Assembly (NCBI GenBank): GCA_044892505.1
Contig: CM097882.1
Span: forward strand, 610,835,859 to 610,888,000
Origin: Schmidtea nova
Lineage: Eukaryota
Direction: 5' to 3'
DNA: 52,142 nt
Positions within the stretch are counted from its first letter, which is position 1. Each line of letters starts with the position of its first letter. Both the position numbers and the translations under genes were made by a program. Positions 1,974 through 48,827 of this stretch are shown here, one piece after another. The notes under the pieces are model-generated. The model was not told the origin of the DNA. It was given only the letters and a program-made list of their open reading frames with translations, and searched no databases.

Positions 1974-2318
1974 TTAACAAGATAGTAAGTGGGCGATTTC
2001 GCTAATTTCCTCCTTAGAGTTAATTTTTGGGTGTTTGTCTCTAATGAGAATAGCTTCTTTAAGTCTGAGATTTTTTTCGTCGTTTTCGTTGGTCAATATT
2101 CTCACTGATATTAATTTTTCCTTATTTTCTGTCTGACATTGGTGGAGATGTCTATATACAGATGACTTTCCACCAGGATCAAGATGTTCTTTAATTCTCT
2201 GATGCAAAGTCCGAAGGGTGCTTCCGATGTAAATTCCTACGCATTTATTACACATGATGCTATAGACAATGTGCTTGCGAAAGCATAATTTCTTTGGTGT
2301 TTGGCAATTTTCCCACAA
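1974..2318 (-). mobile_element. Penelope-like element, GIY-YIG endonuclease C-terminal fragment (5'-truncated)
   Basis: ORF contains VYSIMCNKC-x3-YIGST-x-R-x-L-x2-R-x-KEH, then SSVYRH and LRLKEAILI-x4-P-x-IN, the typical Penelope GIY-YIG layout. An in-frame stop lies just upstream and no RT is visible. Confidence 0.85.
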
Positions 2319-2380
2319 CGTAGTGCTTCATACGCCATGAATGTGCCGGCAAGAAATCGTCATAAACACTATGATCGAAT

Positions 2381-9782: not shown

Positions 9783-10790
9783 ATGAGCAAAGAAAAGCAT
9801 AACTTGGAATTATTTTCCTGAGATAGATGAACACGGTGCAAAATGTAATAATCAGCAGATTTGGCCATGCGAACAGCACGATCATCCACATAAAAACAAC
9901 CCCCTCAATTTAATGACAGAAAATGGGACTCCCATGCTTGCGGACATTGGGAAATGACACAGATTATTATATGCATTATGAATTTGTGAATCTTTACCAA
10001 TTAGAATGTTGGATCCAGAACATTTAGCTTATTTACTACATGAAATAAATCCCCATTTTACTTTACCACCAAGAAAAACATTAGCCACATTATATTACCA
10101 GCCGGCACAATAATATAAAATCATAAAGACAGATTTGGTGCATGGACATCCAGTAAATTGGAATCCTACACGAGGATGGCAGTCCGCTTTTTCGACGAAG
10201 AAATGCAAATAAAAATATTTTACTTGACATTTTATCCATTTCTGATCGGCATCCAACCGACAACCTGCCAGCGAGATACAATTTGGGAGGGCATAGATTG
10301 GGAATAGCTGCTAAGATGGTATCAGTAGTACACAATAGTTCAAGTAACATTATAAAGGTAATGGGAGCTGTTTCAGGGTCTGGTTGGCGATGCTTTGCTC
10401 CTTCATTGCAGTTATGTGTTAGCCACAGGGTACAAATCCTGCAAATACAACTCTGCTCGGGACTTTTCGAAAAATAATTGGCCATTCCAAACACAGCGCA
10501 ACAGCCTCGTCCCTTTTAGAAATTAAACAATTGTCCTTAAACTTGCCTGCCCACTCAGCCATTAAAGACGTAACAACAAGATGGAAGTCGACCTTGTATA
10601 TGCTAAAGCGTTTGATGAAACAGAAAAATGCAATTTATGCAATTTATGCAATTTATGCAGTTTAGCTGATCAACAATTTATCTGATCAAGATGATGACCT
10701 GCTAGAAGCAATGACAACCTTATTGATACCATCGGAGGAGCTACAACTGATCAACATTCAACCATGTCACTACCCTACCAGCAATGTCAC
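9783..10790 (+). pseudogene. Decayed hAT (Ac/ZBED1-like) transposase with BED zinc-finger start
   Basis: Segments in several frames: KKSITWNYF-x7-AKC (BED finger), LLHEINPHFTLPPRKTL, GIAAKMVSVVHNSSSNI-x-RCFAPSLQLCV, and KIIGHSKHS-x-LNLPAHSAIKDVTTRWKSTLYMLKRL-x2-QKNAI (DVxTRWNST motif). Multiple frameshifts and deletions. Confidence 0.85.
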
Positions 10791-10852
10791 AATTAGATAA
10801 TTTTGGTACGCTAAAATAGAAAAATATTAATAATAGTTTTATATTTATTTTG

Positions 10853-12382
10853 TTTGTAAACAAACGATGTCCGAAATAACACTTTTGTAAACAAAGGATG
10901 TCCGAAATAACACGTTTGTAAACAAAGGATGTCAAAAATAAAACGTTTGTAAACAAAGGATGTCCGAAATAACACGTTTGTAAACAAAGGATGTCCGAAA
11001 TAACACGTTTGTAAACAAAGGATGTCCGAAATAACACGTTTGTAAACAAAGGATGTCCGAAATAACATGTTTGTAAACAAAGGATGTCCGAAAAAACATG
11101 TTTGTAAACAAACGATGTCCGAAATAACACGTTTGTAAACAAAGGATGTCCGAAATAACACGTTTGTAAACAAAGGATGTCCGAAATAACACGTTTGTAA
11201 ACAAAGGATGTCCAAAATAACACGTTTGTAAACAAAGGATGTCCGAAATAACATGTTTGTAAACAAAGGATGTCCGAAATAACACGTTTGTAAACAAAGG
11301 ATGTCCGAAATAACACGTTTGTAAACAAAGGATGTCCGAAATAACATGTTTGTAAACAAAGGATGTCCAAAATAACACGTTTGTAAACAAAGGATGTCCG
11401 AAATAACACGTTTGTAAACAAAGGATGTCCGAATTAACACGTTTGTAAACAAAGGATGTCAAAATAACACGTTTGTAAACAAAGGATGTCCGAAATAACA
11501 TGTTTATAAACAAAGGATGTCCGAAATAACACGTTTGTAAACAAAGGATGTCCGAAATAACATGTTTGTAAACAAAGGATGTCCAAAATAACACGTTTGT
11601 AAACAAAGGATGTCCGAAATAACACGTTTGTAAACAAAGGATGTCCGAATTAACACGTTTGTAAACAAAGGATGTCCGAAATAACACGTTTGTAAACAAA
11701 GGATGTCCGAAATAACATGTTTGTAAACAAAGGATGTCCAAAATAACACGTTTGTAAACAAAGGATGTCCGAAATAACATGTTTGTAAACAAAGGATGTC
11801 CGAAATAACACGTTTGTAAACAAAGGATGTCCGAAATAACACGTTTGTAAACAAAGGATGTCCGAAATAACACGTTTGTAAACAAAGGATGTCCGAAATA
11901 ACACGTTTGTAAACAAAGGATGTCCGAAATAACACGTTTGTAAACAAAGGATGTCCGAAATAACATGTTTGTAAACAAAGGATGTCCAAAATAACACGTT
12001 TGTAAACAAAGGATGTCCGAAATAACACGTTTGTAAACAAAGGATGTCCGAAATAACATGTTTGTAAACAAAGGATGTCCAAAATAACACGTTTGTAAAC
12101 AAAGGATGTCCGAAATAACACGTTTGTAAACAAAGGATGTCCGAAATAACACGTTTGTAAACAAAGGATGTCCGAAATAACACGTTTGTAAACAAAGGAT
12201 GTCCGAAATAACATGTTTGTAAACAAAGGATGTCCAAAATAACACGTTTGTAAACAAAGGATGTCCGAAATAACACGTTTGTAAACAAAGGATGTCCGAA
12301 TTAACACGTTTGTAAACAAAGGATGTCCGAAATAACACGTTTGTAAACAAAGGATGTCCGAAATAACATGTTTGTAAACAAA
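10853..12382. repeat. Tandem array of a 31-bp unit (tttgtaaacaaaggatgtccgaaataacacg), about 49 copies
   Basis: Highly homogeneous array. The 31-aa period of the minus-strand ORFs equals 3 x 31 nt, so those ORFs are repeat artefacts. Confidence 0.97.
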
Positions 12383-12613
12383 ACTACTCTGGTTCATATA
12401 TTTGTTGGCGAAATACTCCTTTTCAGATCCTGAATCCAACAATCAAAGTTTATTGACAACAAATTTTTTAGTTTTGTTTTCATTATTTGTATTAGCTTTT
12501 TATGTAAATGTTTTAATTTATTAAACTTTTTATTAAATAAGAAAAAGTTTTGGTTTTAAAAAAAAGTATTTTAGTTATGAAAGTTTTGATTAAATGAGAA
12601 TAAGTAAGAATGT

Positions 12614-13132
12614 TGTCTTTGTTCATGTTGCACGTGTATTGCAAAGTCTTTGTTTAAGTTGCACGCGTGTTGCAAAGTCTTTGTCTTTGTATTTTGAATG
12701 TCTTTGTTCATGTTGCACGTGTATTGCATTGTCTTTGTTTAAGTTGCATGCGTGTTGCAAAGTTTTCGATGACTCATATTTGTGTTAAAAAAATTTGTGT
12801 TAAAAAAATTTGTGTTAAAAAAATTTGTGTTAAAAAAATTTGTGTGAAAAAAATTTGTGTTAAAAAAATTTGTGTTAAAAAAATTTGTTAAAAAAATTTG
12901 TGTTAAAAAAATTTGTGTTAAAAAAATTTGTGTTAAAAAAATTTGTGTTAAAAAAATTTGTGTTAAAAAAATTTGTGTTAAAAAAAAATTTGAAAAAAAT
13001 TTTTGGCGCGAAAAAAAAAATTTGAAAAAAAAAATTTACCCCCCCCCCGGTGGGGTCTCGAAAAAAAAGTTCTTTGTTTAAAGTTTTACGCCCACGCATT
13101 CCTTTGTCTTTGACTCCACACATCTACCTACT
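12614..13132 (-). mobile_element. Polinton/Maverick-like terminal repeat copy 1 (solo): ~28-bp subrepeats, 15-bp A-tract tandem (12778-12990), GC motifs, terminus CATCTACCTACT
   Basis: Reverse-complement homolog of 38955-39861 with the same module order. Similarity ends sharply at ...catctacctact(ca). The 5'-AG terminus (AGTAGGTAG) fits Polinton ends. The Polinton assignment is inference. Confidence 0.6.
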
Positions 13133-14473
13133 CACCTGTTTTTATTCGATCGCTCTGGCAACCTCTGGGAATTTCGTATCGTTTATTTACTGCTTATTTT
13201 AATGAGTTTTTCCAAGCAAGCTGTCTGGCGGTTTCTTCTCATTGCCATTTCCTAATTACTCTACTTAAAATCAGACATTAATAATATCTTCGTTAATTAT
13301 GCTCCTAGGGTTTTCTTTTGAGCGATATTATTTCCAGAACTAATTATCTCGGATTTCCCATTAGCCAATTAATTATTGGATTTATTTTTTTTTATCTTCT
13401 TTTGATGACCCCCGTTGATTTTATTTTACCATTTTCGGATTCATTTCACGATTCAGCATACACATACAGATTTGCCCCGCGCAATTTTTACTTTCAAATT
13501 TTCTAACTTTTTAATTAATTTCAGTATATATTTACAGTATGGGAATTCCATTTCTATGTTATATTTAGTGATTGTTTATTTTTAGATTTCAACTGGAATT
13601 CCTCAGTATTTCAACAGTTCACTTGATTGCCAAGAATTTGCCGTAATTTACTTTATTTTTGTAATTTTGGTAATTTTCATTTGATTATTTCACAGACGCG
13701 AGATGCAATTTTACATTATCGTTTCTCAGTAAATATCAGGGTACCTTAGCATTTGATATCCAATTAACTTAGCGGCTCAAATGTAAGGGGGGGGGGTTCC
13801 AATATCTGGATAATTTGTTGTCTAGAGTGGTAGATTTATTGCATGACATGACTAATTCCGACGGGTGTTATAAACGGCAAGTGGAATCTCTCGGAGCTAT
13901 GAGAAGCTTTGAATTACTAGTAAGTATATCAGATCTATAATGGGTCATAAATTACAATTGCAAAGTTAATGCTCTAGGATGTTAATGAGTGCAGATAAGG
14001 TAGACTGACGCTATGGGTGTTGCAAATGCACAAATTAAACTAATTATGGTAGGTCATCATCAATTGCGAGTTAATTCCAGTCCTCGAATGTTATTCACTG
14101 TATGAAGGTTGTGCATAAAATATTGTGGTTTGTAAGGGATGTATGTCGTCGGGTGAACAGGTAACTTAACAATGATTATAGATTCGACATGAATTATTGA
14201 TTCTACGTGAATTTTCTTGGTGTATATGCTGTTGATGCGTGAATTTAAGTGTTGGATGACGAGGGAAAACCCATAGGGGTACTAAAAATTAATAAGTATT
14301 ACCATACAGGCAATAATAGATACCGAGTTAATATCTATCTGAAAAAGTAATCCCCAATCAAATCGTCAATCGTCTGTCGCAATCATCAATTGTCCGTTTT
14401 AAGTGCCCGTTTTAAGTGCCCGTCTCAACCACCTCAATACAATAATAACAGCAGTAGAAATTCTTTTCGAAAA

Positions 14474-15027
14474 ATGACTATAATCAATCAATTCAAAACC
14501 TGTCTAACAATTCACAACCCTTCATTGTCTATCAATCTTTGTGATCATCATCTGACTAATTAGTGAATTTTATTTTACCCCCACAAACATTCGAAACTGT
14601 TATTTTATTATTAATCTGTAACTTTATTATTATTGAATTATGGAAAATTTTGTATATTAAATTAGTTTAAAATTTTATTATTTTATATTGTTGTAAATTA
14701 ATTTTTCATGTGAAGTTCGCAAACAAAATTTACTAAATGTCATGGTATAAATTGATTTAATTTTTCAGGTGAACTTTACAAACGGAATTTACTTTTGAAT
14801 TATTAAATGTCAAAAAATCTCCTTCGGCATAAGTGAATGCCAATGCCAGCACAAATTTGGGTATATAAGGCAAAGGCAATTCAGCCAAATTGCCATAAAA
14901 TCCAGCTGTAAAATTTTGCGGATAATTTTGCTCTCTCATGTACAAATTCTGTAGAGCTTTTAAAATAGACCAGTTGGTCAAAAATATATAAAATTAAACA
15001 GTTAACAGAACTTTGAAGTTAAATTTA
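14474..15027 (+). repeat. ~550-bp direct repeat, copy 1 (copy 2 at 18564-19184); possibly partial LTRs of the element between them
   Basis: Near-identical from atgactataatcaatc to gaagttaaattta. Copy 1 lies upstream of the LTR-end/PBS junction. Candidate LTR starts are TGTAAGGG at 13782 or 14131. Confidence 0.7.
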
Positions 15028-15203
15028 AAGTTTAACTTGAAAAGTAGTATTAAATTGTAAAACGTTTTCAGTGTACAATTTTTATTGGTAATAATTTTGC
15101 TATTTAATAATTTTTTCAAACAAACATCTTATTGTCTTGTTTATTTATATAGGAATCACCTTCAGTTGAGATTTCAAATACACATATTTAAGACCTCAAC
15201 ATT

Positions 15204-15221
15204 TGGTGCCGCGAACCGGGA
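15204..15221 (+). promoter_or_regulatory. Primer-binding site of an LTR retroelement (tRNA-Phe/His-like), preceded by LTR-like end CA at 15200-15201
   Basis: ...ctcaaCA-tt-TGGTGCCGCGAACCGGGA, upstream of gag. It resembles the tRNA-Phe PBS TGGTGCCGAAACCCGGGA. Confidence 0.7.
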
Positions 15222-15459
15222 CAAAAAAAATTTATAATATCAATCGGGGGATAGGAATTGCGATTAGAGGGATAGTGTAATATATATTGGGAAAATATAT
15301 TTATATTTGAATATTAATTGACCAAAAAATTAAACTCAAATTAACGACATATAAACCTATAAGGTTAATAATAACAAAATAGGTAGAAAGATAAAGAAAG
15401 TTAATATAGATAAGCCACCTGAAATATTGCACAAATTAAGAAAAGAGTTAATATACAAA

Positions 15460-16980
15460 ATGAGTAATAATAGTATAGGCAGCAGTAATAATGGAAGTAA
15501 CAGTAATACAGACAACATAAGCAGTCATAATTTTATAAAAACACTGCCAATAGAATCTTATAAAGGGGACCCTGAAAAGTTCGACGACTTTTTTGCCGAA
15601 ATCGCACAATATGCGGAAGCATGCGGGTGGACATCGAACGAGTTAAAACAAAGAAAATCACTAAATTTAAAGTGATATGCATTACAGGCATACAACAATT
15701 TAGCATTTAAAGGCATTAATTATCAAGAATTAGTTACAAACCTTAAAAAAGAAATAGTAATAGATCGAGACTTACAAAAAATAAATGTTCAAAAATTTAG
15801 AAGTAGATACCAAGGAGCCAGAGAATCAGTAGGTGAATATATATACACGATAACAGAATTAACAAAAAAGGCATTTGGTGCAGGAGATCACACTAGTAGA
15901 TTAATTGAGGATCAATTTTGGAACGGAATCCAAAACATTTTATACAAAGCATTAATTACAATCGAGTATGAAGACTTAAATGAGTTAGTTCAAAGGGCAA
16001 AACGTGTTGAAGCAAGAGATAGATTTAAACCAGAGATAGATGCTGTAGAAATTGAAAAGCAACTTGAGGTGAAACCTGAGTTGAGAAATAAAGATGATAG
16101 TATCCCTTGGGAAGAAATGAAACAATTATATTTGAATTTTGTTAATAATAGACGAAGAGTTAGTCCAAGTAGAAGCCAATCACCTGAAAACAGGGGAAGA
16201 TTTGACAGCCCAGGAAATAAAAATTACGATAATAGAAGTAATCCTTTTAATTTTAAAGATAGAAGAAATACTAATAGAGATAATTTTAGAGATGGTCGTT
16301 CTGAATATAATAGTAATACTAGAGACAGTCGTTTTGATTATAATAGAAGAGACAATAGGTACAGAGATAATTCGAGAGATAGACAAGACAGTCCAGTAAG
16401 GCAAACTACGTCTAATAATGATGGCAGAGATAAAGTGAATTTTAATGGACAAATAAAATATTATAATTGCCAGAGGTATGGGCACTTAGCAAAAGTATGC
16501 AATAAACCACGAGCTGGTTCGCCAATTGGAATAAGATTTAAAAAGGAGCCTGAGATAAAGCAGGTAAGTAGTGATGAGCTTGAGTCAGCAAATAAAGAGA
16601 TAAATATTTTAAGAGAAGAATTAAAAGAATTTAAAATTCAATATGGAAGACTCATTGAGAGAAAACTTGAAATGTTTATAAATGAATTTAGCACTTTTAC
16701 AAATTACGTAGATATTGATAATGATGAGTTAAAAGAAATTAGAGAAGCAGATGAAATATTTCTTACAGAAGAAAATAGACAAAAAGAATTAATAGAGGAA
16801 TTTAAAGAGGTATTGTATAAGCAACCATTTGATGACAATGAAACATTAAGGGTAATTAATAAAATACAGGTTAATAGTATTGATTTAGAGAGGCTTAGAA
16901 ATTTAATACCAATGATGGTAAAAAGACAAAATTTAACGAGGGTATTTGAGTTAGAAATAGAAGATTGCACGAAACACTAA
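15460..16980 (+). pseudogene. gag: Ty3/Gypsy-type Gag with one premature stop (TGA 15673-15675) and a degenerate zinc knuckle, followed by an acidic coiled-coil extension
   Basis: SYKGDPEKFDDFF...YAEACGW...LK*YALQAY...FRSRYQGARESVGEY...QFWNGI...DLNELVQRAKRVE (capsid motifs); RS/N-rich linker; YYNCQRYGHLAKVC (CCHC with first C mutated). The frame is open from 15676 to 16980. Confidence 0.85.
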
Positions 16981-18563
16981 ATGTAACGATCGAGTCAAAT
17001 GATAATTATTTTTTCAGTAATAAACAACGGATACATCCTTGCACTAAAGTGAATAAATTAAAGCGAGTGGTAAGAGCCAAATGGCCAGGAACCATCGGAG
17101 AAAGAGATATAATAAAATTATATTTTAATGGAATAGAATTATTGAATGACGAATATTTAATTGACTATGGGATAAACCCAATAAGTGATAATATTGTGAT
17201 AGCTACAATAAAAAAGCAAACGATTAATGAAATAATGACACCACCACCGTCTGTTGAGTTAAGTATAAATGAGGAAAATGATTTTGATAAATTATTCAGA
17301 CTATGGGACAAATCACCTAGTGAAACAAAGAAATTGGCAACAGAGGAAGAAATTATATTTAAACTTATAGATGATAAGTATAGTAACCTAAAAGAAACAA
17401 TAGAAAGAATAGCTGACGAAGCAAAAACGAAAGATGCGGAAACATTAAAGCGAGGTAGAGGAAGACCTCGAAAATCAGAAATTATAGAAAAATCAGAAAA
17501 TAGAAATACGGCAGAACGATTAAGAGAGATTACAAATCAACAAAGACATGAACAATCAGAGTATCAAGATGATAATAATGAAGTAAACAAAATAAAAGAA
17601 ATAATAAAAGCAATGAATATTAAGCTATTTCCAGAAACAAAGCCAACAGTACAAATTAGAAATATAACTGAAAGGATGATGTTAATTAAAAAGGATACCA
17701 AAGAACTAGCCACAGAGGAGACAATTGAAAAAACAGTATTAAAAATCCTGTTCAATACAGGGATAGATAAAGATAAAATAATAACGGCCATGGCATACTT
17801 GGCCGCAAGATATAAAAAACTCATAAAGGAAAATCCAAAAGAGCAATTAGAAAAAGTAGCAACAATGATGTTTAAAAGATTGAAAGTAGAGGCAATACCA
17901 TGGATAAAAAAGAAAGGAGGATGGAAAGTATTATATGATAAAGATACGACGAATAAAGAGAGTGATACAGATGAGGTAATAAAACAATTAATAACGAAAG
18001 CAACAATAAAACCAAAGACAGAGAGTAAATCGATAACTTCCATAGTAATAATCATAATCACTTTGTTATTAGATTTAATCAGAGGGAGCAATGCAATGGT
18101 AACATATGATTGTCAAATTCCAAAGTGGGGGCAAAAATACTCACTGTTAGATGTTGAAAATTGCCCTGAAGCAAATCCAACTAAATTAATCATGTCAGAG
18201 TCTCAAATATTCCATGTTTATCAAGAATCAATTTTTATTCATACGGAGGCTAAAGAGTGTATCGTAAAGTACCAGGAGGAAGCATATGTATGTCATGCTG
18301 GGGTACGAACAGTGTTAAAACCTACGTGGACACCCGAAGCAGTAATATTGTCGCCAATAGAGTGTGAAGGAGCATTTAAAACAAAGAAAGTAAAATATAG
18401 CGGTTATAAAGGAATCGAACTAGAAGCAAGAATAGGAGCAAAAATGAGACAAGATGTAAATGTCGTGGGATGGACATCAAAAGGAGGAGAATATACAATA
18501 TGGGGTGAAAAACTGAGAAATGTTGTAGTAAGGAGACACTACATGGTAGAACTGAGAAAGTTC
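16965..18563 (+). CDS. Second ORF of the LTR element: ubiquitin-like domain, AT-hook, Bcl-2-like domain, hydrophobic signal/anchor and Env-like glycoprotein N-terminus (truncated at 18563)
   Basis: aa5-82 TKVNKLKR...IKLYFNGIELLNDEYLIDYGI (UBL); aa162-170 KRGRGRPRK; aa258-321 VLKILFNTGIDKDKIITAMAY...PWIKKKGGW (BH1/BH2-like); aa357-377 ITSIVIIIITLLLDLIRGSNA; aa378 onward YDC-x9-SLLDVENC with spaced Cys residues. Confidence 0.7.
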
Positions 18564-19184
18564 ATGACTATAATCAATCAATTCAAAACCTGTCTAACAA
18601 TTCACAACCCTTCATTGTCTATCAATATTTGTGATCATCATTTAACTATTTAAATCATTGTCTAACAATTCACAACCCTTCATTGTCTATCAATCTTAGT
18701 GATCATCATCTGACTAATTAGTGAATTTTATTTTACCCCACACAAACATTCGAAACTGTTATTTTATTATTAATCTGTAACTTTATTATTATTGAATTAT
18801 GGAAAATTTTGTATATTAAATTAGTTTAAAATTTTATTATTTTATATTGTTGTAAATTAATTTTTCATGTGAAGTTCGCAAACAAAATTTACTAAATGTC
18901 ATGGTATAAATTGATTTAATTTTTCAGGTGAACTTTACAAACGGAATTTACTTTTGAATTATTAAATGTCAAAAAATCTCCTTCGGCATAAGTGAATGCC
19001 AATGCCAGCACAAATTTGGGTATATAAGGCAAAGGCACTTCAGCCAAATTGCCATAAAATCCAGTTGTAAAATTTTGCGGATAATTTTGCTCTCATTTAC
19101 AAATCCTGTAGAGCTTTTAAAATAGACCAGTTGGTCAAAAATATATAAAATTAAACAGTTAACAGAACTTTGAAGTTAAATTTA
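18564..19184 (+). repeat. Direct repeat copy 2 of 14474-15027, with an extra internal ~65-bp duplication
   Basis: Direct sequence identity. It truncates the env-like ORF. Confidence 0.8.
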
Positions 19185-22051: not shown

Positions 22052-23462
22052 TTATTTTCTTCTTCATTATTCGTCACAGCATGCACATCCGTTTACACAG
22101 GATACTCTCATCGAATCTTCACAAAATATTCAATATTCAACGCATTTAGCATTTGATCCGATAACCATATCAATTCTAAAATATTTTGTAATTCTTATAA
22201 ATTAATAAATTTGCCGACATCGACCGTCACAGTAATTGATTGAATCTCTGAATTTCAAATCCCCCGGCTTTAACGGTTAATGCATCCCATTACCCGACAC
22301 TTACTTGCCGCTTTTGTCAACAACTTGTTTCGGTTTGCCACTCAGGAATATCATGCCGGGAACTAAACATTTACCTTTATAATTGATGTTGCTCAACATT
22401 TTTGATTAATTAAACAAATATAAACAATATTAATTAATTAATTAATTAATGAAAATGGAATTTAGAAATGATGCCGTATATCAAATAGTAGGACCCAGCG
22501 GGAGTGGGAAAACCTTGTTTGTATGTATATTATTACAATCAAAAATATTTAAATCGCAATTCAATAAAATTTATTGGCATCGGGGTGCTGATGAAGAACA
22601 TGGATTGACTCAAGATCAGTTTTGTAAATTAAAAATGACTATTATAAAAGGTTTTGACAAAAATTTATTTTCTTCTTCATTATTCGTCACAGCATGCACA
22701 TCCGTTTACACAGGATACTCTCATCGAATCTTCACAAACTATGCAATATTCAACGCATTTAGCATTTGATCCGATAACCATATCATAATGAAACTCAAAT
22801 AATTGACATATTATTACAAATTGGGTTATAATTTAATTGGGTTATTTCCAAAAGTTATTTCCAATTAATTTTATTTTATTAAAGTTTCTTCATTTCTAAT
22901 CTGTTTTCCTGAAATCAATTAAATTAATTGATTTCTTCAATTCTTTTAATTTCTGTTTATAATATTTTTTTGCATTTCTTTTCCAATTCTAAAATATATA
23001 TTTCGACTTCAGCACCAATAACCCTACCCTCATTATAATATCCCCATTTGAGCGCTAGAAAAAAAAAATAAATCAACTTTGAAATTAAAAATAATACTAT
23101 TATTTTATCACAGTCTAAATAATACAATAAAGTACATAATTAATAAGAACAAAAAGAAATAAAATACAAATATTTATTGAAATAATAATAAAAACTTAGA
23201 AAAAACTTAGATAAAACTTTGAAAAATTTTGAAATAAAGAACAACTAAATCGCAAAACTTTATTATAAATTATAAATTTCGTTATAATATGCTTTACGCA
23301 TTTCTGACATTAAGATATGCACCGAATGATCTCTTTTAAAATCGTGACAGCATGCACATCCGTTTACACAGGATACTCTCAGTGAATCATTGCAAACTAT
23401 ACAATATTCAACGCATTTAGCACATTATCCGATAACCATATTATAGTGAATCTCAAGCAATT
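22052..23462 (+). repeat. Three dispersed copies of a ~120-bp module (22052-22172, 22662-22803, 23342-23462)
   Basis: tcgtcacagcatgcacatccgtttacacaggatactctca...caacgcatttagca...ccgataaccatat is seen three times. Copy 2 truncates the ATPase. Confidence 0.85.
22449..22661 (+). pseudogene. Polinton/Maverick packaging ATPase (A32/FtsK-HerA-like), N-terminal fragment
   Basis: YQIVGPSGSGKTLFVCILL...FNKIYWHRG: Walker A plus the F-x2-IYW motif typical of Polinton ATPases. No Walker B, because the fragment is cut by a repeat. Confidence 0.8.
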
Positions 23463-23929: not shown

Positions 23930-24790
23930 TCTTCGCAGCTTCTTGCAGTTTTTTTTGGCGACCCACCTTTACAGTGGGCCTATAAATTTATTCAAATAAA
24001 AAAATTCTTCGCTCCTAGGAGACGAGTCCTGTCCTTTCAGACCGCCCGGCCGAAGATGGCACAGGCTATTTTCATCCATGTTTTATTTTATTTTCCCCTT
24101 GAGCCATGGTCTAGGGACCAACGACTGAGCAGGTTCAGCATTGCGAATTGAATCGGCAGGTATTCATATTTATTTCGGAGTGGAAAAAAGCTTTTATCGT
24201 CATTATCCATTCATTGTCATTCGGCAGGCATTCCATTATTCATTTAGTTGTTCATTTAGTTGTATTCATTTCGAAAGTCTTCATCATTATAGTATCATCA
24301 CCATTATGGTTATTTCCATTTTATTAATTATACAGATGGTATAATTAACGGTATAATTAATTAAGTATAATAGTCTCGGAAGCGGCCCCAAATCCACGAG
24401 TGAAGTCTACAAAGCAATTCGACCCTTCCCATCTAGCTTTGTGTACAACAAGTCTCGCATCGACTTATCGCACGCCAGGGAGTCACCAACTTTAATAGGC
24501 TTACTCCACTTGGCTAACAAGTTTCTGACGACATCCTGCTCCACTAATCCGCGAATCCTTCCATCACTGCTATCGGCAAGCTTCTTCAATCTGGTTACCT
24601 TCACAAATTTGACTTCAGCCAAGAGAGTAGGTACCCGCATTCCCCCATCTTTAACCTTGGAGTGATTGTATGAAAAGCACGTATCTTTGGGTAGATGTAA
24701 CCATTTACGAACTAGCATCCGGGTCATCTTGTCCAGTTCACCGAGCTCCGAATCATCAGTTTCGCCTAAAATTGCTTCGCGCAAAATGCC
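23930..24790. repeat. ~860-bp duplicated module (second copy about 27655-28525)
   Basis: Near-identical, including ggagacgagtcctgtcctttcagaccgcccggccgaag and the R2-like thumb fragment. Confidence 0.9.
24407..24784 (-). mobile_element. R2-like non-LTR retrotransposon, RT thumb fragment (copy 1)
   Basis: LGELDKMTRMLVRKWLHLPKDT-x4-HSKVKDGGM-x2-PTL...RLKKLADS...LYTKLDGKG matches the R2 LD-x3-R-x2-VR-x-WL-x-LP...DGG...DG-x-G pattern. Confidence 0.8.
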
Positions 24791-25480: not shown

Positions 25481-28159
25481 TTTCACATGAATATTCTGCA
25501 GGTGTGTAGGTTTGGACATATATTAGGTTTGATGTGTGCGTTGTCTTCTTTTTTAATTTTGTGTTTTTGTGTGAGGTGATGGTTACTATTGATAATAATA
25601 ATTACCATGCCTACTGTTAAAAATTTCATGAATTCGTTTACAATGCTAACTACTCCTGTTAATACGGGGATAGATAACGATAATGATAATAATAATAAAA
25701 TAATAATAAAATTAATATTCACAAATTTAAATATTAAAAAAATGTCTATAGCTATTATGAATCCTATTGATGATATAAATGCTATGAACGCTTGTCCGCA
25801 ACAAGCCGCAACTATATAGGGGGAGTGAGTATAATGATGAAAATAATTATAGTTTAACTACAAATAGAAAAATTAGAATTAATAATAAACCGTTTAAAAT
25901 AATGAAACCAAACTTGAAAAGTGAAAAATTATATATAAAGAAAAGTATATATATAATGAAAGTAGAGATATATATTTTGATAATGACAGAAAGATTATAA
26001 ATGAATACAATGATGAATGTCAAAATAAAATAGAGTCTGAGGCTGCCTATTTTGGGGATCTATATAGAGACTATGTCAATTTATTAAAGGTGCCACATTA
26101 TTTCTTTTTACACATAAGTAATGATATATAATGATATATATCTGTCACATTAAATAATACAGTTCTTTATGAAAATAATTTGATCCCAAAATTATCTTTA
26201 AATATATTTAATTGAAAAACAAACTACATAAAATGCCTTTGACAACTCCACCGCATGCCATAGACTCTTGACGTAGAGGCAATTTCAGGCACATTCAGAC
26301 CACTTCTTCCAATTCCAGCAATAACAAGACCTTCTTGTTTTCAATGTTTGTTTTCTCAGTTTAAGGAAGATTCTTTAAAACTCGTAAATATTTCATATTG
26401 GTCAAAGGACCAAGCATCGACCCTTGTAATTGCTAAAAATCTACATGAAGAAGTGAAATAAATTGAGTATCCTTGGAAGGGATAAGAACATCACCAAGTC
26501 TAAACTGGACGGTCATTGCTTATCCACAAAGAATTGTCATTTTTGTTAAAATGAAATTCTCGGTTTACCTAAAAAGAAATTCTTGGGACAAATGATGAAA
26601 GGTTTTAAAGTATTTACGCGATCCAGTGACCTTATTCGGTAAATATGGTCGACAATTCTTTGAATTCAAATTTTTTCTTAAATCGTTCGAAACTAACAAT
26701 AGCGACCGGATCCATAAAAATGAACAACAAATAAAAATGTTATATAAAAATATACTACCTGCTGTAAATGTGAGCACCAAGAATCTGAAGCTCATGTAAT
26801 AAACCATTGTCTACTTCCTCTCTTTGTACTCGAGTCAGTTTATTAGTGTCGAAGTGATAGATTAATGCCAAATCGAATCATAGTGGCGAACCACAAAATC
26901 AACGACCAACATTCAACTTACATAACAGTTCGACGGATTCTTCAGGGGACAAAAGATTTTGGTATCCGACTCCCCCTGATCTGCCCCCACCACAGGTACG
27001 TTATTAAGGCAATCGTATTACCGGCCGCCTTGACGCATGTAAAGCAACTCAGCAAGCCGAGTGGTGTAGTTTATCTTTTTATAACTGGTGGTCCTACTCC
27101 CACACTGTCCTTACAACTTAACACCAATCAGCTCCAAATATCTTGCTTTCGCTTTCATTTAAAAGGTGAGACTGACACTAAGCTGCGCTTCCACTGGTCA
27201 TGATAAGTAGTCATAACTCATGTAGTCCTATTCAGCAATCTGAATAGCGTAGTTTGTCTTTTTATAGCCGGTGGTTCTACTCCCACGCTGCCGTACAAGC
27301 ATCGTACTCATCCTCATACAAACACTAATACTCTATTAAACTCGAGGCTTTGTCTTGCCTGAATCTTCAAGAGATTTATATACATGTGTCCAGTTTACCA
27401 TGTTCATTATATATATATAAAAATAAAATAATAAGATAAAGTAAAAGGATACGCTTGTTCTTGCAGAGAAGTTCGAATAGGCCTAAAGAATACTCAAAGT
27501 AGTTGAACTTACCACAGGATCTTCTCGAATGCACAACTTGAGCCTAATAGCGGGATTTATACTAAGGGAGTTTCACCTGTTCTTGCACCCTCAGCCCATC
27601 ATACACCACACTTTGAGCGAAAGTCGACCCGCTACGGACTGTCGGGAGAATTCTTCGCAGCTTCTTGCAGATTTTTTTTGGGGACCCTCCTTTTCAGTGG
27701 GCCTATAAATTTATTCAAATAAAAAAATTCTTCGCTCCTAGGAGACGAGTCCTGTCCTTTCAGACCGCCCGGCCGAAGATGGCACAGGCTATTTTCATCC
27801 ATGTTTTATTTTATTTTCCCCTTGAGCCATGGTCTAGGGACCAACGACTGAGCAGGTTCAGCATTGCGAATTGAATCGGAGGTATTGTCATTCTTATCAT
27901 CGGCAGGTATTCATATTTATTTCGGAGTGGAAAAAAGCTTTTATCGTCAGGAGGCCATTCATTGTCATTCATTGTCATTCCCATTATTCATTTAGTTGTT
28001 CATTTAGTTGTATTCATTTTGAAAGTCTTCATCATTATAGTATCATCACCATTATGGTTATTTCCATTTTATTAATTATACAGATGGTATAATTAACGGT
28101 ATAATTAATTAAGTATAATAGTCTCGGAAGCGGCCCCAAATCCACGAGTGAAGTCTACA

Positions 28160-30010
28160 AAGCAATTCGACCCTTCCCATCTAGCTTTGTGTACAACAAG
28201 TCTCGCATCGACTAATCGCACGCCAAACTTTAATAGGCTTACTCCACTTGGCTAACAAGTTTCTGACGACATCCTGCTCCACTAATCCGCGAATCCTTCC
28301 ATCACTGCTATCGGCAAGCTTCTTCAATCTGGTTACCTTCACAAATTTGACTTCAGCCAAGAGAGTAGGTACCCGCATTCCCCCATCTTTAACCTTGGAG
28401 TGACTGTATGAAAAGCACGTATCTTTGGGTAGATGTAACCATTTACGAACTAACATCCGGGTCATCTTGTCCAGTTCACCGAGCTCCGAATCATCAGTTT
28501 CGCCTAAAATTGCTTCATGCAAAATGCCTGGTATAAGGAAGTTAGTTAAGACTTCCAGTTTTTGTTGGGGTTTAATAGGGTAGATAGTAATATTGTTAAT
28601 GCGTTCTGTATATATTTTAGTTAGATTATTTTTCATTTTGCCGCTTCTGATGAAGTCACACATGTATTGTATGACAAATACCCCACAGTCATAGTTGTTC
28701 GGTTGGAGAGGATATTCACATTTGCTAAGGGATGAATTATCCAATTTTTGTTCAATTGTGTTTTCCACACATTTATCTAATTAAATATTGCAAGACCGAA
28801 AGTTGGTTATTTGGGTCAATTATTGCTGAGGACAATTTTTTCCTCTCCTTTTTCTTTTTATTGGTAGACGCCCTTGGGGTTAGACTTCCTTTCTACTGTA
28901 TTACAAATTAGAATGTTATTTTTATTAATTTTATTAAATAAAAGAAAATTATCATTTTCATCCGCGCTTGGTGCTCCTCCAGGATCTCCAGACTTCCGAT
29001 GAGCAGCAGGATCTTCGGCATGTTGAGCATCGCTTTCTGAAAATAATAATGCGACCTGATTATCGTTCAGGTCAGACGAAACAGAAGTACCTTCGGTACT
29101 TCTGGGGGGCCCGATCGACCCCCCAAAAGCTTTATCTCCACATCTTCATTGGAGATTGTTCGTTATCCATTGTGAATTGATTATCTTGGTTATTTTCAAT
29201 AGATTTCTCCATTTCAACCCCACTACCAGAGGGATAACTGGATTGTGGGGGACAAGCGATTGACATTTTTTTAGGTTGCATCTTTTTAATGTAATTTTCT
29301 CGAATAATCCATATTTTCTATTGAATTATATTTTGTATTAATCAGAATTTTTTTCTGATTATTTTGATCTATAACTTTAGAAGATTCATTTGAGGATTGC
29401 AATCTTTTTTTAAGATTGGAATTTATGATGAAATCATCATTAAATATTTCATCATATTTTATTAAATTAATATTATCTGAATATATGTAGCTTCTCTCCA
29501 AGTTATCCGATTTAGTTAAATTTTTTTCCATAAAATCCAGTATTTTTTTCTGAATAATTTGGTGTAAAATTTTTGAAAGTTGATCGATATTTGACTCCAC
29601 TATTTTATCTCCACTTCTTCATCTGAGATTGGAGATTGTTCTTTATCTACGTTTTTTCCAATAGATTTATGGTGTAAAATATTTGTCAATTGTTCAAAAT
29701 CTTTGCAAATCTGGGCATTTGTTTCGGTTGTAATATGAATATCTTCTTTATTTTTTATAGAATTATTCATCATTTCAACCCCACAACCAGAGGGATAACT
29801 GGATTGTGGGGGACAAGCGATTAAAGTATTTCCCATTTGCATTTTTTCAATATAATTTTTAAAAAGTGATTTAATTTCGCAATTTAAAACAATTTTATCT
29901 TGTTCATTGATGATATTAGAATATATGGAACTTTCTGAATATTCCATATTTTCCAATAAATTCTTTTTTGTAATAACCGGTTTTGTAAGGTCCTGACTCT
30001 TGTGATCCAT
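28160..30010 (-). mobile_element. Internally deleted NeSL/R2-type retrotransposon: N-terminal ORF pieces, Ulp1/C48-type protease motif (28652-28720), then R2-like thumb (28160-28605)
   Basis: CEYPLQPNNYDCGVFVIQYM (Ulp1 Q-x-N-x2-DCG-x-F motif) is joined in frame to ERINNITIYPIKPQQKLEVLTNFLIPGILHEAILG (R2 PLKPQQ motif). The RT core is missing. An internal duplication links 29150-29265 and 29625-29825. Confidence 0.7.
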
Positions 30011-38364: not shown

Positions 38365-38952
38365 ACGTGTAGTTGGAATACAAGATATTTTCCAACCACT
38401 AAAGTTAGCCAATCCATATTTAGGAATATGGAGTTATGAAAAACAATCGGTAGTTCCTTACGAATCTGCCTAGAAAGATTACATTTCGAACAAGCAGCAC
38501 CCAAGAATTCACCAGTGTAATGGTCATGATCTCTAACCGGATTAAGTAAACGATTTTTACAAAGTTAACAAATGGTCCATTAGGCAAAAGATCTTTTATT
38601 ATCAAATGTCATAAGAAGTGGTTCCTTCTAGTTATTTTTATAAAAAGGATAAACAATTTCTTCACCTATATCGCTAATTTCAGAAAGGAACCTAATCACA
38701 CAATCTATACCTAAGAAACTCTTGTATGCTTTTTCACCAATAAAGTTATTAACAAGTAAAAGTCCAGCAGATTTAGGTACATGTCTCTGAAAATACTTAT
38801 CATCAGAAGTTACGATCGCCTCAAAATTAGTGTAAACTATAAAAGGCGGAGTAATTGTTTTACCCCAATTACTAAATTTCAAATAAGGGTTTTTAGGTAT
38901 TGTGCCTAATTGATTTTTAGAAGACAACTCTTGATGACGATCGTATGCATCT
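38365..38952 (-). pseudogene. polB: Polinton protein-primed DNA polymerase B, N-terminal/pre-exonuclease fragment with stops
   Basis: YLKFSNW-x5-PPFIVYTNFEA...FQRHVP-x-SAG...F-x-G-x-DCV-x2-FL, then IC*LC...PVRDHDHYTGEFLGAACSKCNL...LPIVFHNS. Confidence 0.85.
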
Positions 38953-38954
38953 TG

Positions 38955-39861
38955 AGTAGGTAGATGTGTGGAGCCGGGAACAAAGACATTATGACTCATT
39001 GCGTGGGCGGAAATAAAGAACAAAGACCCCCGGGGGTAGAAATTTTTTTGATGAGTCATCGATGAGTCATACTTTTTTTGATGAGTCATCGATGAGTCAT
39101 AATTTTTTTTTCAAATTTTTTTTTCGCGCCAAAAATTTTTTTCAAATTTTTTTTGCGCCAAAAATTTTTTTCAAATATTATTTTCGCGCCAAAAAATTTT
39201 TTTCAAATTTTATTTTCGCGCCAAAAAAATTTTTTCAAATTTTTTTTTAGACAAAAATTTTTTTTAGACAAATTTTTTTTTAGACAAAATTTTTTTTTCA
39301 AATTTTTTTTTTTAGACATTTTTTTTTAGACAAAATTTTTTAAGACAAAATTTTTCAAATTTTTTTTTAAGTCAAATTTATTTTTACACAATTTATTTTT
39401 AGACAAATTTTTTTTTAGACAAAATTTTTTTAACACAAATTTTATCAACACCAATTTTTTTTACAAAAATTTATTTTTTAAGACAAATTTTTTATTACAC
39501 AAAATTAGAGTCATCAAAAATATTTGCAACAGGCGTGCAAACTAAACAAAGACATTGCAATGTCTTTGTTGTATTTGTGCATGTTTAATTAATTAGTATT
39601 TGTCAAGTATGAAGCTTTTGCACATCAAAACCATCACAGAAGAGGTTCTGCTTCCAGGGTTCTGATCGCAATGTTCTGCTACTAATGTTGTTATTTATTT
39701 ATTTAATTATTTCACAAATTATTATCTTTCAAACTAAACAAAGACATTGCAACACACGTGCAAGTTAACAAGGACTTTGCAACATGCATGCAAACTAACC
39801 AAAGACATTGCAACACACATGCAACACTTTGCAACACATGTGCAACATAAACAAAGACATT
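38955..39861 (+). mobile_element. Polinton/Maverick-like terminal repeat copy 2, starting AGTAGGTAGATG and abutting the polB fragment
   Basis: Inverted homolog of 12614-13132 with expanded subrepeats. A ~170-bp insert (39561-39729) carries the motif aaaaccatcacagaagaggttctgct also seen at 2568-2593. Confidence 0.6.
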
Positions 39862-41010: not shown

Positions 41011-41082
41011 TCATCCGAAATAATCAATTGCGGTCGGATTATAAAAATAGTACGCATCTTCATCATCATAATCTGCCGGACC

Positions 41083-41141
<59 letters not shown>

Positions 41142-41955
41142 GAAGCTGCTGCTGTTCTTGATTGCCATCCCGGTCACCTACAAATATAGTGGTGCCACCC
41201 CCCATATAATGGCCATACGCCAAACTTTTATTTTTTTCCACCCAGTTCCTCTTATCATCCCTACAAGATAAGGCCCTCTTATTGCTTTTAATACTGAAAA
41301 GTTGGTGGTTTTTCGAAGTAATGCGGAACTGGGGGACATTATAGATTTTGTCATTTAAAAAGCAGTCAAGGTAAGACTGGTGTGTGAGACCTGCATCTTT
41401 CAAACAGATACCCTTGGCTTTCATGCAGGCCTCGTCTCCCATCAGGCTATAACACTTAGGTCTTAAGAAAACCCACTCATCATACAGTAGACCCTTGTTC
41501 TCATCCTTAAATTTACCAATCACAGAATCAAGGGTCCTACTATACAATGCATGATGAGTGTCGTAATTCGAAGTGTCCAAAAGCCTATCGTGAATCATGG
41601 CGGTCAAAAGAGTGTTTAGGTCAAGATGTTTTATTTCTAAGAAGAAGGAATCAGTATCCCCAGCAACGATGTTAATTTCGCAGTTGAAGTCGTTACGATA
41701 TTTTTGTAACTCTTTATACTGCAGCTGGTACATACGAAGTTTGGATAAATCCAGTACGGTTTGTCCGATGTAGCTGGGTCTATCCAAACATACTGATTCC
41801 TTCTGAAGCAATACGGAGATGAGGTCACTGTCAATTTTATTTGTTTTTTTGAAATTAGGTTTTGACGTGTAAGTCAGCAGTTTTTGTGCCGAATTACACA
41901 ATCTTAAATTGATTCGTTTTTTTAAGTTCTCTACGGTTTTGCCGTAGAGACTATT
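41011..41955 (-). pseudogene. polB: Polinton pPolB C-terminal half (uninterrupted) with a poly-Q tail
   Basis: NSLYGKTVEN, LDRPSYIGQTVLDLSKLRMY, GDTDS, DTSNY, VIGKFKDE, FLRPKCYS, KAKGI, DDKR, LAYGHY (ends 41206), followed by a 65-aa extension. Confidence 0.95.
41083..41142. repeat. (TTG)20 microsatellite encoding Q20 on the minus strand
   Basis: Read directly from the sequence. Confidence 0.95.
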
Positions 41956-42388
41956 AAAAAGATATGAGAACGAACAATCGGCCCTCTTCAGGGCCACAAT
42001 TTATGATTGTGTAAAAAAAATAATAAAAAAAACTTTTAGCTCACAGAAAACAGAAATGAAACAAAATTTGAAAAGAAAACCGAAAAGAAATAATCAAACA
42101 AAAATTTAAAAGAAAACCGAACGCAAAAAATTTTAAAATATTGAGAAAACCGAAAACTGAAAACAAACCAATAAAGAAAAATTAACCGAAAATGAAAAGA
42201 AAAAAATGATGAAAATAAACCGAAACTGAAAAGATAAAAGAAAACAGATTGTGCACGAAATAATGGTCCTCTTTAGGACTTTATTTTTGATTGTATATAA
42301 AATTGCGATAACAATTAAAACTATGAACTTACTAATTTTTTATGTGTTATTCAATTATTTTTTTTTTTAAAGTTTATTACTATTTAAG

Positions 42389-44890: not shown

Positions 44891-45454
44891 AACAATGAAA
44901 ACAATTAATTTCGATAAACCAGATTTCCCTTATGCTTTGTTATCAAATGGCACTTCAAATGCTTTTAAGGCTATTTTCAATGGACTTTCTAATGTCCAAA
45001 CGAGCAATTTCCCAAAATCAGCAATGATACAATGATTCTATTGGTCTACGCTTATTAGTTCAAGCGTGCGTTCGTTTGAAGCCGACTGTTTTCATTACCA
45101 ATAGGAAACATTTCTTTGACTTATTGAATTTGCACCGAGAACAAACAGTGAAATTCAAATTATTGACATGGGCTCTAAGACAAGCATGCTCAAAATACAA
45201 CTCAGCTTGCCAAATTTGGCTGATTTATTTCCTTCCGTTTATCTCCCAAAAATGTCACACTGAATTTGTCATCAGTTTCGGTGAAGAAATTTAAGATTAT
45301 CCGATTGATGCTACTGGTAATGATTCAGGTTTATTGGTAAATGACTTTGTTCCAATCATTGACCTTATATTTACTCAACACTCCGATCCTCAAAATGATA
45401 AAAAGTTCAAGAAAGAACAAGCAAATTTTCAGTTAACTCCCAATCAAATTTCGC

Positions 45455-46545
45455 CTTCCCGGCTTTTCTAATCGTTTCTCGCACTCATTTTACATTGCCG
45501 ACACAACATTCCCGATTCTAGGCCTCGATTTCTTAACAACCGAAGAAGTGAACATCGACTGTAAAAACAGAAAATTGTATCAACTCCCTCATCCAGTTTC
45601 CGCGATAGTGTCGCCAAAAACAACAATCACTTTAACAACAGACAACGTAGAATCAGTCATCGCCACAAATTTCCCGAACCTTCTGACCAAGTCTACCACA
45701 CACGTACCCAGCAAAGAATCCGTCCATTTCATCACCACTGTTCCGTGCACACCACAAAGCTCTCGTTCCCGGCCTCTGGCTATTAATAGACGACAGGCCG
45801 TCGAACTAAAATTTTCCGAACTCGAAGACAAAAGCATCATTCGACGCACCTCCTCCCCATGGGCTTCCCCTATCCATGTAGTCACGAAGAAAGATGGCTC
45901 CTTCCGCCCTTGTGGTGATTTTCGAGCGTTGAACAGCGTAATGATTCATGACGCCTACCCTATGCCTCTCATTAAGGACCTATTTTCACGTTTTTTGGGG
46001 AATACAGTCTTTTCAACGATCGACCTTGCCAAAGCATTTCACCAGTTCCCTGTAAATCCAAATGACGTTCTAAAAACAGCTGTAACTACCCCTTTCGGCA
46101 ATTTCGAATACTTGTTCATGCCATTCGGCCTTAGGAATGCCGCACAAACACTCCAACGCTTCATGGACATCACCTTCAGACATCTCAACCACACCTTCGT
46201 CTATCTAGACGATATCATTGTCGCTTCTACTAACGAGTTCTCACACGCAAGAGACTTAATACAGGTTTTTGAAGTCCTCGACAAAAATAACCTTCAAATT
46301 AGCGTTGATAAATGTCAATTCTTCAAGTCGCGCGTCCGTTTTCTATGAAATATACTGTCTGCAGACGGATGTGAACCATTGCCAGAAAGGCTAGACATTA
46401 TCCGATCATTTCCCAAACCGTCCACGGTCACAGAGCTTCGCAACTTTCTCGGAACTGTAAACTTCTGCCACAGATTTATCCCAAACTTGTCCCGCATTAC
46501 CGCACCACTATCAGCACTCAATCACGGACCCAAAAAGGCTTTAAT
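45455..46545 (+). pseudogene. pol: Ty3/Gypsy pol fragment: protease C-terminus and reverse transcriptase, one stop at 46346-46348, truncated before RNase H
   Basis: FYIADTTFPILGLDFL; SSPWASPIHVVTKKDGSFRPCGDFRALN; DAYPMP; KTAVTTPFG-x-FEYLFMPFGLRNAAQT; VYLDDI; LRNFLGTVNFCHRFIPN. Confidence 0.95.
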
Positions 46546-46605
46546 CAAAATGGTGTCAGAAATCCTCCTGATGACAGTCAAACAGGACTGTTTACAAAAC
46601 AACAA

Positions 46606-47045
46606 ATGAATCAATTACCACAACAAATGACTCAAATAATTCCAATAAACATTCGGTTTAGAGAAAATTCCGCCGAAGATAGCTCTTTACAATTCATGCA
46701 GGCTCAGAGGAATATGCAAAGCCAAATGCCACCTGCGAGAAGTGGTTATCAAAATTTTCACAATTCTCACATCCCATTTGCAAATCCAACCGGGAACTTT
46801 CGACAAGAAAGACCTCAAATGAATGAATTCAATGATCCAAGTTGTCACAAATTGTGGCCAATGGCAAAGCTGATGCCCAACAATGTGAATCCAAATAACC
46901 GGCGTTCTTTCCACCAGGAATTCAATAAACCGAACGAGCACAATCGGCATAATTTCTACAATAATCGGTCATTTAATAGCAAGAACAAAAGAATCAAATA
47001 TGTCAATGATCAATCTTCAGTAATCAATCTTCAACATCCACACGG
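46606..47045 (+). pseudogene. N/Q-rich segment resembling a Gag C-terminal region with a frameshifted zinc knuckle
   Basis: tgt cac aaa t(t)gt ggc caa tgg reads CHKCGQW if one T is removed. Low-complexity N/Q/R composition. Confidence 0.35.
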
Positions 47046-47211
47046 CGAGTCATATTTTAAATTTATACTATTAATTATTTATTTATTATACACATTCCTC
47101 TTAAATTGCATAATATTATATATAATACCTATTATAATTATAAAATTTTATGCTGCACAATTTTTCTACTCTCCCATTAAAGTCTATGCTAATAACCCCA
47201 CTCAATCCACC

Positions 47212-48030: not shown

Positions 48031-48059
48031 TACACCTGCAACGTCACAAAGAATTCCAA

Positions 48060-48826: not shown

Positions 48827-48827
48827 T

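Follow-up and report, generated by a model that had tools for sequence, protein, structure and literature searches.

A retroelement in a 52,142-nucleotide stretch of the Schmidtea nova genome (contig CM097882.1, positions 610,835,859 to 610,888,000, forward strand; hereafter the window) is a deleted, non-coding copy of a Ty3/Gypsy long terminal repeat (LTR) retrotransposon. Full-length relatives in the same genome encode a predicted Bcl-2-fold domain fused in frame ahead of a virus-like fusion glycoprotein (env). We consider it probable, with considerable room for doubt, that the window copy belongs to a recently active, compact, Burro-like family whose polyprotein probably passes through the endoplasmic reticulum (ER) membrane, with a Bcl-2-fold protein as a likely product that would stay attached to the membrane and attenuate host death or stress signalling. 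An original prediction, made from the window letters alone, had proposed a primer-binding site (PBS), a gag and an overlapping -1-frame open reading frame (ORF) with ubiquitin-like (UBL), AT-hook and Bcl-2-like domains ahead of a class-III-type Env whose start resembles that of chuvirus-like glycoproteins captured by LTR elements. The parts themselves were recovered, several with weak profile scores, as follows.

14250..15201 (+): 5' LTR, 952 nt, with the TG...CA terminal motifs common to family LTRs
15204..15221 (+): PBS for tRNA-Phe(GAA), 18/18 complementary to the 3' end of host tRNA-Phe with CCA added
15460..16960 (+): gag, with capsid-like and low-complexity regions, one CCHC knuckle at about 16462-16503, and a coiled region
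15673-15675 (+): premature stop in gag, shared by 0/13 other copies
16955..16980 (+): copy-specific frame break between gag and UBL, shared by 0/26 spanning copies
16977..17210 (+): ubiquitin/SUMO-like domain (UBL; PF11976 E 0.008, over 16977-17231, and PF00240 E 0.034, neither reaching the cut-off)
17448..17477 (+): AT-hook-like motif, aa167-176 (PF02178 E 0.2, below cut-off)
17553..17948 (+): predicted Bcl-2-fold domain (PF00452 and structure model)
17766-17777 (+): BH1 site, with DKDK instead of NWGR
17901-17924 (+): BH2 motif W-x4-GGW, kept (WIKKKGGW)
18030..18095 (+): predicted internal env signal sequence, hydropathy 2.61 over 17 residues (aa361-377), with predicted cleavage after S-N-A
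18096..18563 (+): truncated env, the initial quarter of a Monjiviricetes-type fusion glycoprotein (18099-18563 matches PF24664 positions 23-180/653, E 1.3e-6)
18564..19184 (+): 3' LTR remnant with both ends gone; identity to the 5' LTR is 95.5% over 89 nt and 98.5% over 528 nt

Two frames cross the window element (15676-16980, 434 aa; 16950-18653, 567 aa), and a short stretch near 16961 that is missing here is present in every one of the 26 copies, of 27 examined, that span the junction. The env ends after about 155 aa and passes directly into LTR sequence at 18564, a junction confined to the window copy among 40 scored of 351 candidates. Comparison with a full-length copy revealed none of the rest of env, pol, ORF2 or the polypurine tract in the window. 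Over gag-env the window copy is 91-93% identical in DNA to eight unbroken copies, and its 5' LTR aligns in two blocks, at 70-75% identity, with that of a full-length copy. Among the copies sampled, the frame break, the gag stop and the env/LTR junction are peculiar to this one, so the apparent -1 frame and the absence of pol reflect damage to this copy and not the design of the element. The original prediction was right that no protease (PR), reverse transcriptase (RT) or integrase (IN) lies between gag and env, which also holds for unbroken copies, but pol is not lacking; it follows env in full-length copies, where gag to IN occupies one frame. A 68-nt LTR unit is repeated in the 3' LTR remnant near 18564-18720, and the same unit is expanded to a tandem array of about 3 kb at G000:C3:129494421-129497443, G000 being the label of the host genome that was searched for relatives.

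A DNA search of the host genome with the Bcl-2 region returned 231 candidates, and the 40 that were scored are 95-100% identical. The first six top matches, fetched with their flanks, comprise one unbroken 3,068-aa frame and five frames broken at various places; seven further copies were picked for long open frames, so the sample is biased toward unbroken copies. Elements of this family are 11.8-13.9 kb long, with LTRs of about 1.0-1.1 kb and polyproteins of 3,057-3,082 aa. In one full-length copy (L029) a single frame runs from gag through UBL, AT-hook, Bcl-2, signal and env to PR, RT, RNase H (RH) and IN, continues into a tail with a hydrophobic end and is followed by a second ORF. The Pfam order in L029 is zf-CCHC, Bcl-2 (E 4.5e-5), Monjiviricetes fusion glycoprotein (E 7.8e-88), protease, RT, RNase H and integrase, with RVP at 1649-1746, RVT_1 at 1982-2140, RNase H at 2224-2352 and integrase at 2438-2610. 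The zf-CCHC match is weak in the window gag (E 0.067) and better in an unbroken copy (E 0.002). The search for intact copies thus located the pol and the whole env, and the domains are common to many copies rather than forming a locus-specific chimera. Full-length copies have the TG...CA LTRs, PBS (for tRNA-Phe, 18/18), polypurine tract, target duplication and PR-RT-RH-IN order of Ty3/Gypsy elements. LTR pairs were found in 11/13 family copies examined, ten of them 98.7-100% identical and one 94.9%, and 4-bp target duplications flank 15/15 elements checked from this family and two sister families. The near-identical LTR pairs suggest that the family moved recently. A six-frame search of the genome with a Bcl-2 profile (150 scored of 1,679 candidates) gave 141 Bcl-2 matches, of which 28 lie in frames of at least 3,050 aa and 56 in frames of at least 2,000 aa.

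Three further families in the host genome have the same domain order, with frames of 2,992, 3,401 and 3,393 aa in elements of 13.4-17.3 kb. The four families form two pairs, with polyprotein identities of 65% and 74% inside the pairs and 35% from one pair to the other. Bcl-2 matches in the three sister families range from E 5e-5 to 0.04. The UBL aligns in all four, with an apparent second UBL in two (by eye), and the AT-hook is absent from the alignment of the three sister families, although similar motifs occur in the outside proteins P0003, P0004 and P0005. The 15.7-17.3 kb sister families (L083, L085) apparently have two UBL repeats, two or three CCHC knuckles and a different primer site. 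A search of 1.84 billion protein representatives outside the host genome gave three proteins: P0003 (gag-UBL-AT-hook-Bcl-2-env, Bcl-2 E 0.055), P0002 (Bcl-2-env, Bcl-2 E 7.7e-5) and P0004, which matches the UBL region. A Bcl-2 match ahead of env is thus kept in the four host families and in P0002 and P0003. The further protein P0005 (3,865 aa) has gag, env and pol in one frame, a signal ahead of env and three protease-like domains. Among proteins of 295-940 aa, none of 8,000 scored matched the window ORF at E ≤0.001, and an Atlas search gave no usable match.

The Bcl-2 assignment is based on profile, structural and motif evidence. In the window, aa254-325 match PF00452 at E 2.5e-6 (28.4 bits, short of the 31.4-bit cut-off), and in the six-frame genome search the same domain scores 31.8 bits, above the cut-off. 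Sequences of solved structures that match at E ≤10 are Bcl-2-family chains or fusions in 55/55 cases, each weak (best E 0.12). A structure model was built from an alignment of eight element-derived sequences that was free of host and viral Bcl-2 proteins, and it has a mean predicted local distance difference score (pLDDT) of 81.9 and a predicted template-modelling score (pTM) of 0.78. Foldseek places Bcl-xL and Bcl-2 first with this model (E 1e-3, probability 1.0, TM 0.5-0.65). The VIA structural aligner returns Bcl-2-fold chains in all of its top 34 rows (Z 12.6-5.7), led by Bfl-1 (Z 12.6, root-mean-square deviation 3.2, 129 aligned residues), and the first unrelated chain follows at Z 5.0. 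This model replaced a single-sequence model with pLDDT 56 and a best Foldseek E of 0.25, although the top rows of the latter were also Bcl-xL. The model thus indicates that the domain is a true Bcl-2 fold, as had been proposed. The BH2 motif W-x4-GGW is invariant in 8/8 aligned sequences and belongs to six invariant positions across sequences that are 15-39% identical. The domain is also better conserved than its two flanking linkers, with 43% identity against 27% and 20% in one family pair and 49% against 33% and 33% in the other. Within these two pairs, non-synonymous changes in the Bcl-2 region amount to 0.32 and 0.27 per site against 0.71 and 0.73 synonymous changes. We propose a putative death-suppressing role for the domain.

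Full-length env in L029 matches PF24664 over positions 5-638/653 (E 7.8e-88), in line with the proposed likeness to chuvirus-like glycoproteins. Env has 17 cysteines in 4/4 families and a weak match to BDV_G (E 0.002); an env profile gave 0 matches among solved structures. A passage in 10.64898/2026.08.30.748148 reports that a chuvirus glycoprotein models as class III, and Burro env has been reported to be homologous to gypsy Env (PMC6431247). By sequence, env is a Monjiviricetes-type fusion glycoprotein. The hydrophobic stretch ahead of it, also noted in the original prediction, is preceded by basic residues and ends with small ones at -3/-1 in 7/7 proteins printed, and the distance from the BH2 tryptophan to the env YDC is 63-78 aa in 7/7 proteins that have both. 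An internal signal sequence is the best reading of this stretch. The suggestion that one segment serves as both Bcl-2 anchor and env signal fits this spacing, but P0005 has the same segment without a Bcl-2 domain, so that its primary role is that of an env signal. A hydrophobic segment follows IN in 4/5 polyproteins, and another lies near the C-terminus in 5/5; these two segments suggest a second membrane protein.

These features can be combined into a processing scheme. The segment after Bcl-2 would serve as an internal signal, and cleavage by signal peptidase would expose a free env N-terminus on the lumenal side. Past the env anchor, PR-RT-IN would again lie in the cytosol. The element protease could then release Gag, UBL and Bcl-2. 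The Bcl-2 domain would remain cytosolic and anchored at its C-terminus, in the manner of cellular tail-anchored Bcl-2 proteins, and Gag would be made at the membrane that holds env. Flaviviral capsid anchors offer an analogy for such a shared signal and anchor. The Bcl-2 domain may keep the producing cell alive via a non-canonical surface, because its BH1 lacks NWGR. A more far-reaching version, which we regard as unlikely, is an enveloped and still active Ty3/Gypsy lineage organized like a flavivirus around one multi-pass polyprotein. In this version the env signal would double as the Bcl-2 tail anchor, a second membrane protein would follow IN, ORF2 would supply an ISG20-like nuclease, Bcl-2 would block death without NWGR, and the hundreds of copies would amount to a dispersed survival gene for host stem cells.

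Several observations weigh against the favoured reading. For helical bundles the structural aligner advises caution at a Z of about 13, and the best match here scores 12.6; Pfam Bcl-2 scores are mostly at or below the cut-off and weak in two families (E 0.004-0.04). The proposed BH1-like stretch does align with the BH1 of Bcl-xL, but NWGR is degenerate in every aligned element sequence (DKDK, NRDR, DKEV, NREV, DKSR); one sister-family copy (L040) has NWDR. According to a passage in PMC9027176, BH3 binding depends in part on the Gly and Arg of NWGR, and with so degenerate a BH1 a canonical mode of apoptosis modulation is less likely. The dN/dS values of 0.20 and 0.13 for the family pairs are rough, with synonymous sites near saturation; between distant family pairs the ratio is 1.19 at 19% identity and uninformative, and the Bcl-2 changes seen inside the family are too few to be informative (3 synonymous, 4 non-synonymous). 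The C-terminal env anchor exceeds the hydropathy threshold in 3/5 full polyproteins, and in this family it is visible only by eye. P0005 gave neither a Bcl-2 match nor a BH2 motif in Pfam and motif checks, and because it has the same layout, the Bcl-2 domain appears to be dispensable for this kind of element. Finally, all processing and functional steps of the scheme are deduced from sequence and a fold model.

The loss of the BH1 signature from all element sequences, while fold and BH2 persist, could alternatively mean that the same element uses its Bcl-2 fold as a repurposed adaptor or membrane scaffold without a BH3-type apoptosis role. The poxviral proteins A46, A52 and B14, which have a signalling role, would be the models for this; they are among the fold matches at Z 5.9-7.3, and the UBL and ISG20-like ORF of the element also suggest interference with host signalling. 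The closest folds are, however, pro-survival proteins, both cellular and viral (Bfl-1, A179L, Bcl-xL, Z 12), and divergent BH1 motifs can still bind BH3, as a passage in PMC8310162 describes for poxviral homologues with SPGR or NDNR. We therefore see an adaptor role as a serious possibility that is nonetheless less likely than death suppression. A Bax/Bak/Bok-like domain that permeabilizes membranes and helps particles to exit the ER or cell is improbable. BOK (Z 11.4) and BAK1 (Z 11.1) do lie within about 1.5 of the best row, and one family has a strongly hydrophobic helix within the domain, but the top fold matches are pro-survival, and the host would pay a high price for such a protein with candidate open-frame copies in the hundreds. 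Known viral Bcl-2 proteins are also mostly pro-survival.

Similarly improbable, and perhaps slightly more so, is that the element took the domain from its host and now carries it as a decaying passenger, retained only because it is in frame. Low Pfam scores, the degenerate BH1 and the absence of Bcl-2 from P0005 agree with decay, as does lower conservation than in env (72-85%) and RT (85-94%). The six invariant positions, the conservation above linkers in both family pairs and the complete helical bundle all speak for maintenance instead. The window sequence on its own reads as a pol-less element with a programmed -1 frameshift into UBL-Bcl-2-env, but this can practically be discounted, given that neither the frame break nor the gag stop recurs in the other copies sampled, that the env/LTR junction is unique among the candidates scored, and that env is cut at a quarter of its length beside a 3' LTR that has lost both ends. 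A donor for the domain did not emerge from the host genome: against an element profile, 14 host-like Bcl-2 exons reached 4.6-25.6 bits, and none stood out. These 14, out of 30 fetched Bcl-2 matches (L030-L038, L041, L049, L051, L055, L058), have no DNA similarity to the element and resemble exons of host Bcl-2-family genes, several with a degenerate BH1.

Burro elements provide the closest published comparison. Burro-1 (GYPSM1) to Burro-4 are giant Ty3/Gypsy LTR retrotransposons of dugesiid planarians, in which Gag-CCHC, a Ubi2/SUMO-like domain (PF11976), BCL-2 and env lie in frame between gag and pol, followed by PR-RT-RH-IN (PMC6431247). Their env matches mononegavirus fusion glycoproteins, and their domains have been suggested to interfere with host apoptosis and ubiquitination (PMC6431247). 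The original prediction knew of no retroelement with a Bcl-2 fold; a Bcl-2 domain fused ahead of an in-frame env was already published for Burro in 2018-2019, and what differs is the compact family. Compared by description, both share the order Ubi2/SUMO-like domain, BCL-2, env, all in one frame with the gag before it and the pol after it. Burro elements exceed 30 kb and have an ORF1 of 4,873-5,140 aa, MATH/TRAF, BIR and ankyrin domains, two or three CCHC knuckles and a dUTPase-like domain between PR and RT (PMC6431247), whereas this family has 11.8-13.9 kb, about 3,070 aa and one CCHC knuckle; the 15.7-17.3 kb sister families have two or three. Pfam gave no match at E ≤1 to MATH/TRAF, BIR or ankyrin in the polyprotein or ORF2 of this family. 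The roughly 200-aa PR-RT spacer is conserved, and a Pfam search of it for PF00692 (dUTPase) had no match, although the published Burro dUTPase call used HHpred. The ISG20-like ORF2 and the predicted membrane protein after IN go unmentioned in section 7 of PMC6431247. The family is thus Burro-like in layout and lacks two defining features, the set of MATH, BIR and ankyrin domains and the giant size. Burro-1 may be more distant from it than Burro-2 to -4. Among the matches listed, the layout is described only by PMC6431247; the compact family and the signal-as-anchor idea appear in none, though Grohme 2018, Lee 2026 and supplements may describe them.

Other planarian and viral systems have parts of this arrangement. 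Passages in PMC11410931 and PMC13238120 describe Burro elements as large, and one in PMC8532177 places Burro expression under PIWI control. Burro1 also encodes a BIR-RING protein (B-IAP; Lee et al. 2026) that, according to a passage in PMC13465017, protects planarian stem cells. Both systems are planarian LTR elements with a host-type apoptosis regulator, but B-IAP is a BIR-RING caspase inhibitor whereas the present polyprotein is BIR-free and has a Bcl-2 fold. Viral Bcl-2 proteins (A179L, KsBcl-2, BHRF1, M11L, ORFV125) have the same fold (Z 5.7-12.2) and likely the same purpose, but are stand-alone genes; here the fold is a polyprotein domain, its predicted anchor is the env signal and NWGR is not kept. 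Retrotransposons with captured chuvirus or Jingchuvirales glycoproteins are reported from arthropods (PMC7642597, PMC10084718). They share with this family a PF24664-family env on an LTR element. Such elements are BEL/Pao with a separate glycoprotein gene and are not known to carry Bcl-2.

Additional observations concern element parts and related elements. ORF2 of a sister family matches ISG20L2 (E 5.8e-7) and ISG20 (E 1.3e-5); ORF2 of this family is homologous to it (pairwise E 6e-19) and matches ISG20 at E 0.004, with catalytic motifs that look less complete by eye. ORF2 at L084:4086-5534 and L024:1670-3583 resembles ISG20/REX4-type DEDDh exonucleases. The tail after integrase (L029:8500-9300) has two hydrophobic segments and a Thr-rich stretch, is a predicted second membrane protein, matched no Pfam family and is the fastest-evolving part within the family (dN/dS 0.40-0.48). 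The tRNA-Phe(GAA) pattern, that of the element's primer, has 2,592 matches in the host genome, and from G000:C1:566906065 onward (L105-L107) a tandem array of 240-nt period has a tRNA-Phe(GAA) gene in each unit. LTR elements of 24-26 kb occur at G000:C1:364303412-364327393 (L096-L098) and G000:C1:529411961-529437962 (L100-L103). They have 4.0-4.5 kb LTRs that are 99.9% identical and ORFs with SUMO-like, protease and ankyrin domains, RING-TRAF-MATH, and BIR-RING (inhibitor of apoptosis, IAP). The two examined have no RT match and nothing inside their LTRs that matches the polyprotein of this family; they look like non-autonomous, Burro1-like carriers of IAP and TRAF. A BIR profile gave 1,295 candidates in the host genome, most of the scored ones in 399-aa frames.

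Outside the element, the window contains tandem arrays at 10728-12440 (31-nt units) and 12708-13048 (15-nt units), and other retroelement fragments at 45437-46348, 46375-48096 and 47894-48859 with two RT domains (E 5e-28, 8e-24) and DUF7041. A GIY-YIG endonuclease fragment at 1974-2327 (-) is presumably Penelope-like. Two 99% identical fragments of a non-LTR-like element lie at 24233-24790 and 27981-28780 (-), one beside a weak Ulp1-protease match. Fragments at 22446-22769 (+), 38628-39110 (-), 41011-42000 (-) and 48881-49201 (-) look by eye like genes for the ATPase, DNA polymerase and capsid of Polinton/Maverick elements; their sole Pfam match is a weak one to a P-loop.

The role of the Burro domains has been considered worth testing but hard to approach in so complex an element (PMC6431247). 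Four compact, recently active families, 35-74% identical, offer natural variation, and their Bcl-2 domain has a confident fold model and is small enough to be expressed separately. P0005, without Bcl-2, indicates that the module can be gained or lost. Should the domain prove to protect host cells, element-borne death control would have a second form, different in mechanism from the Burro1 IAP.

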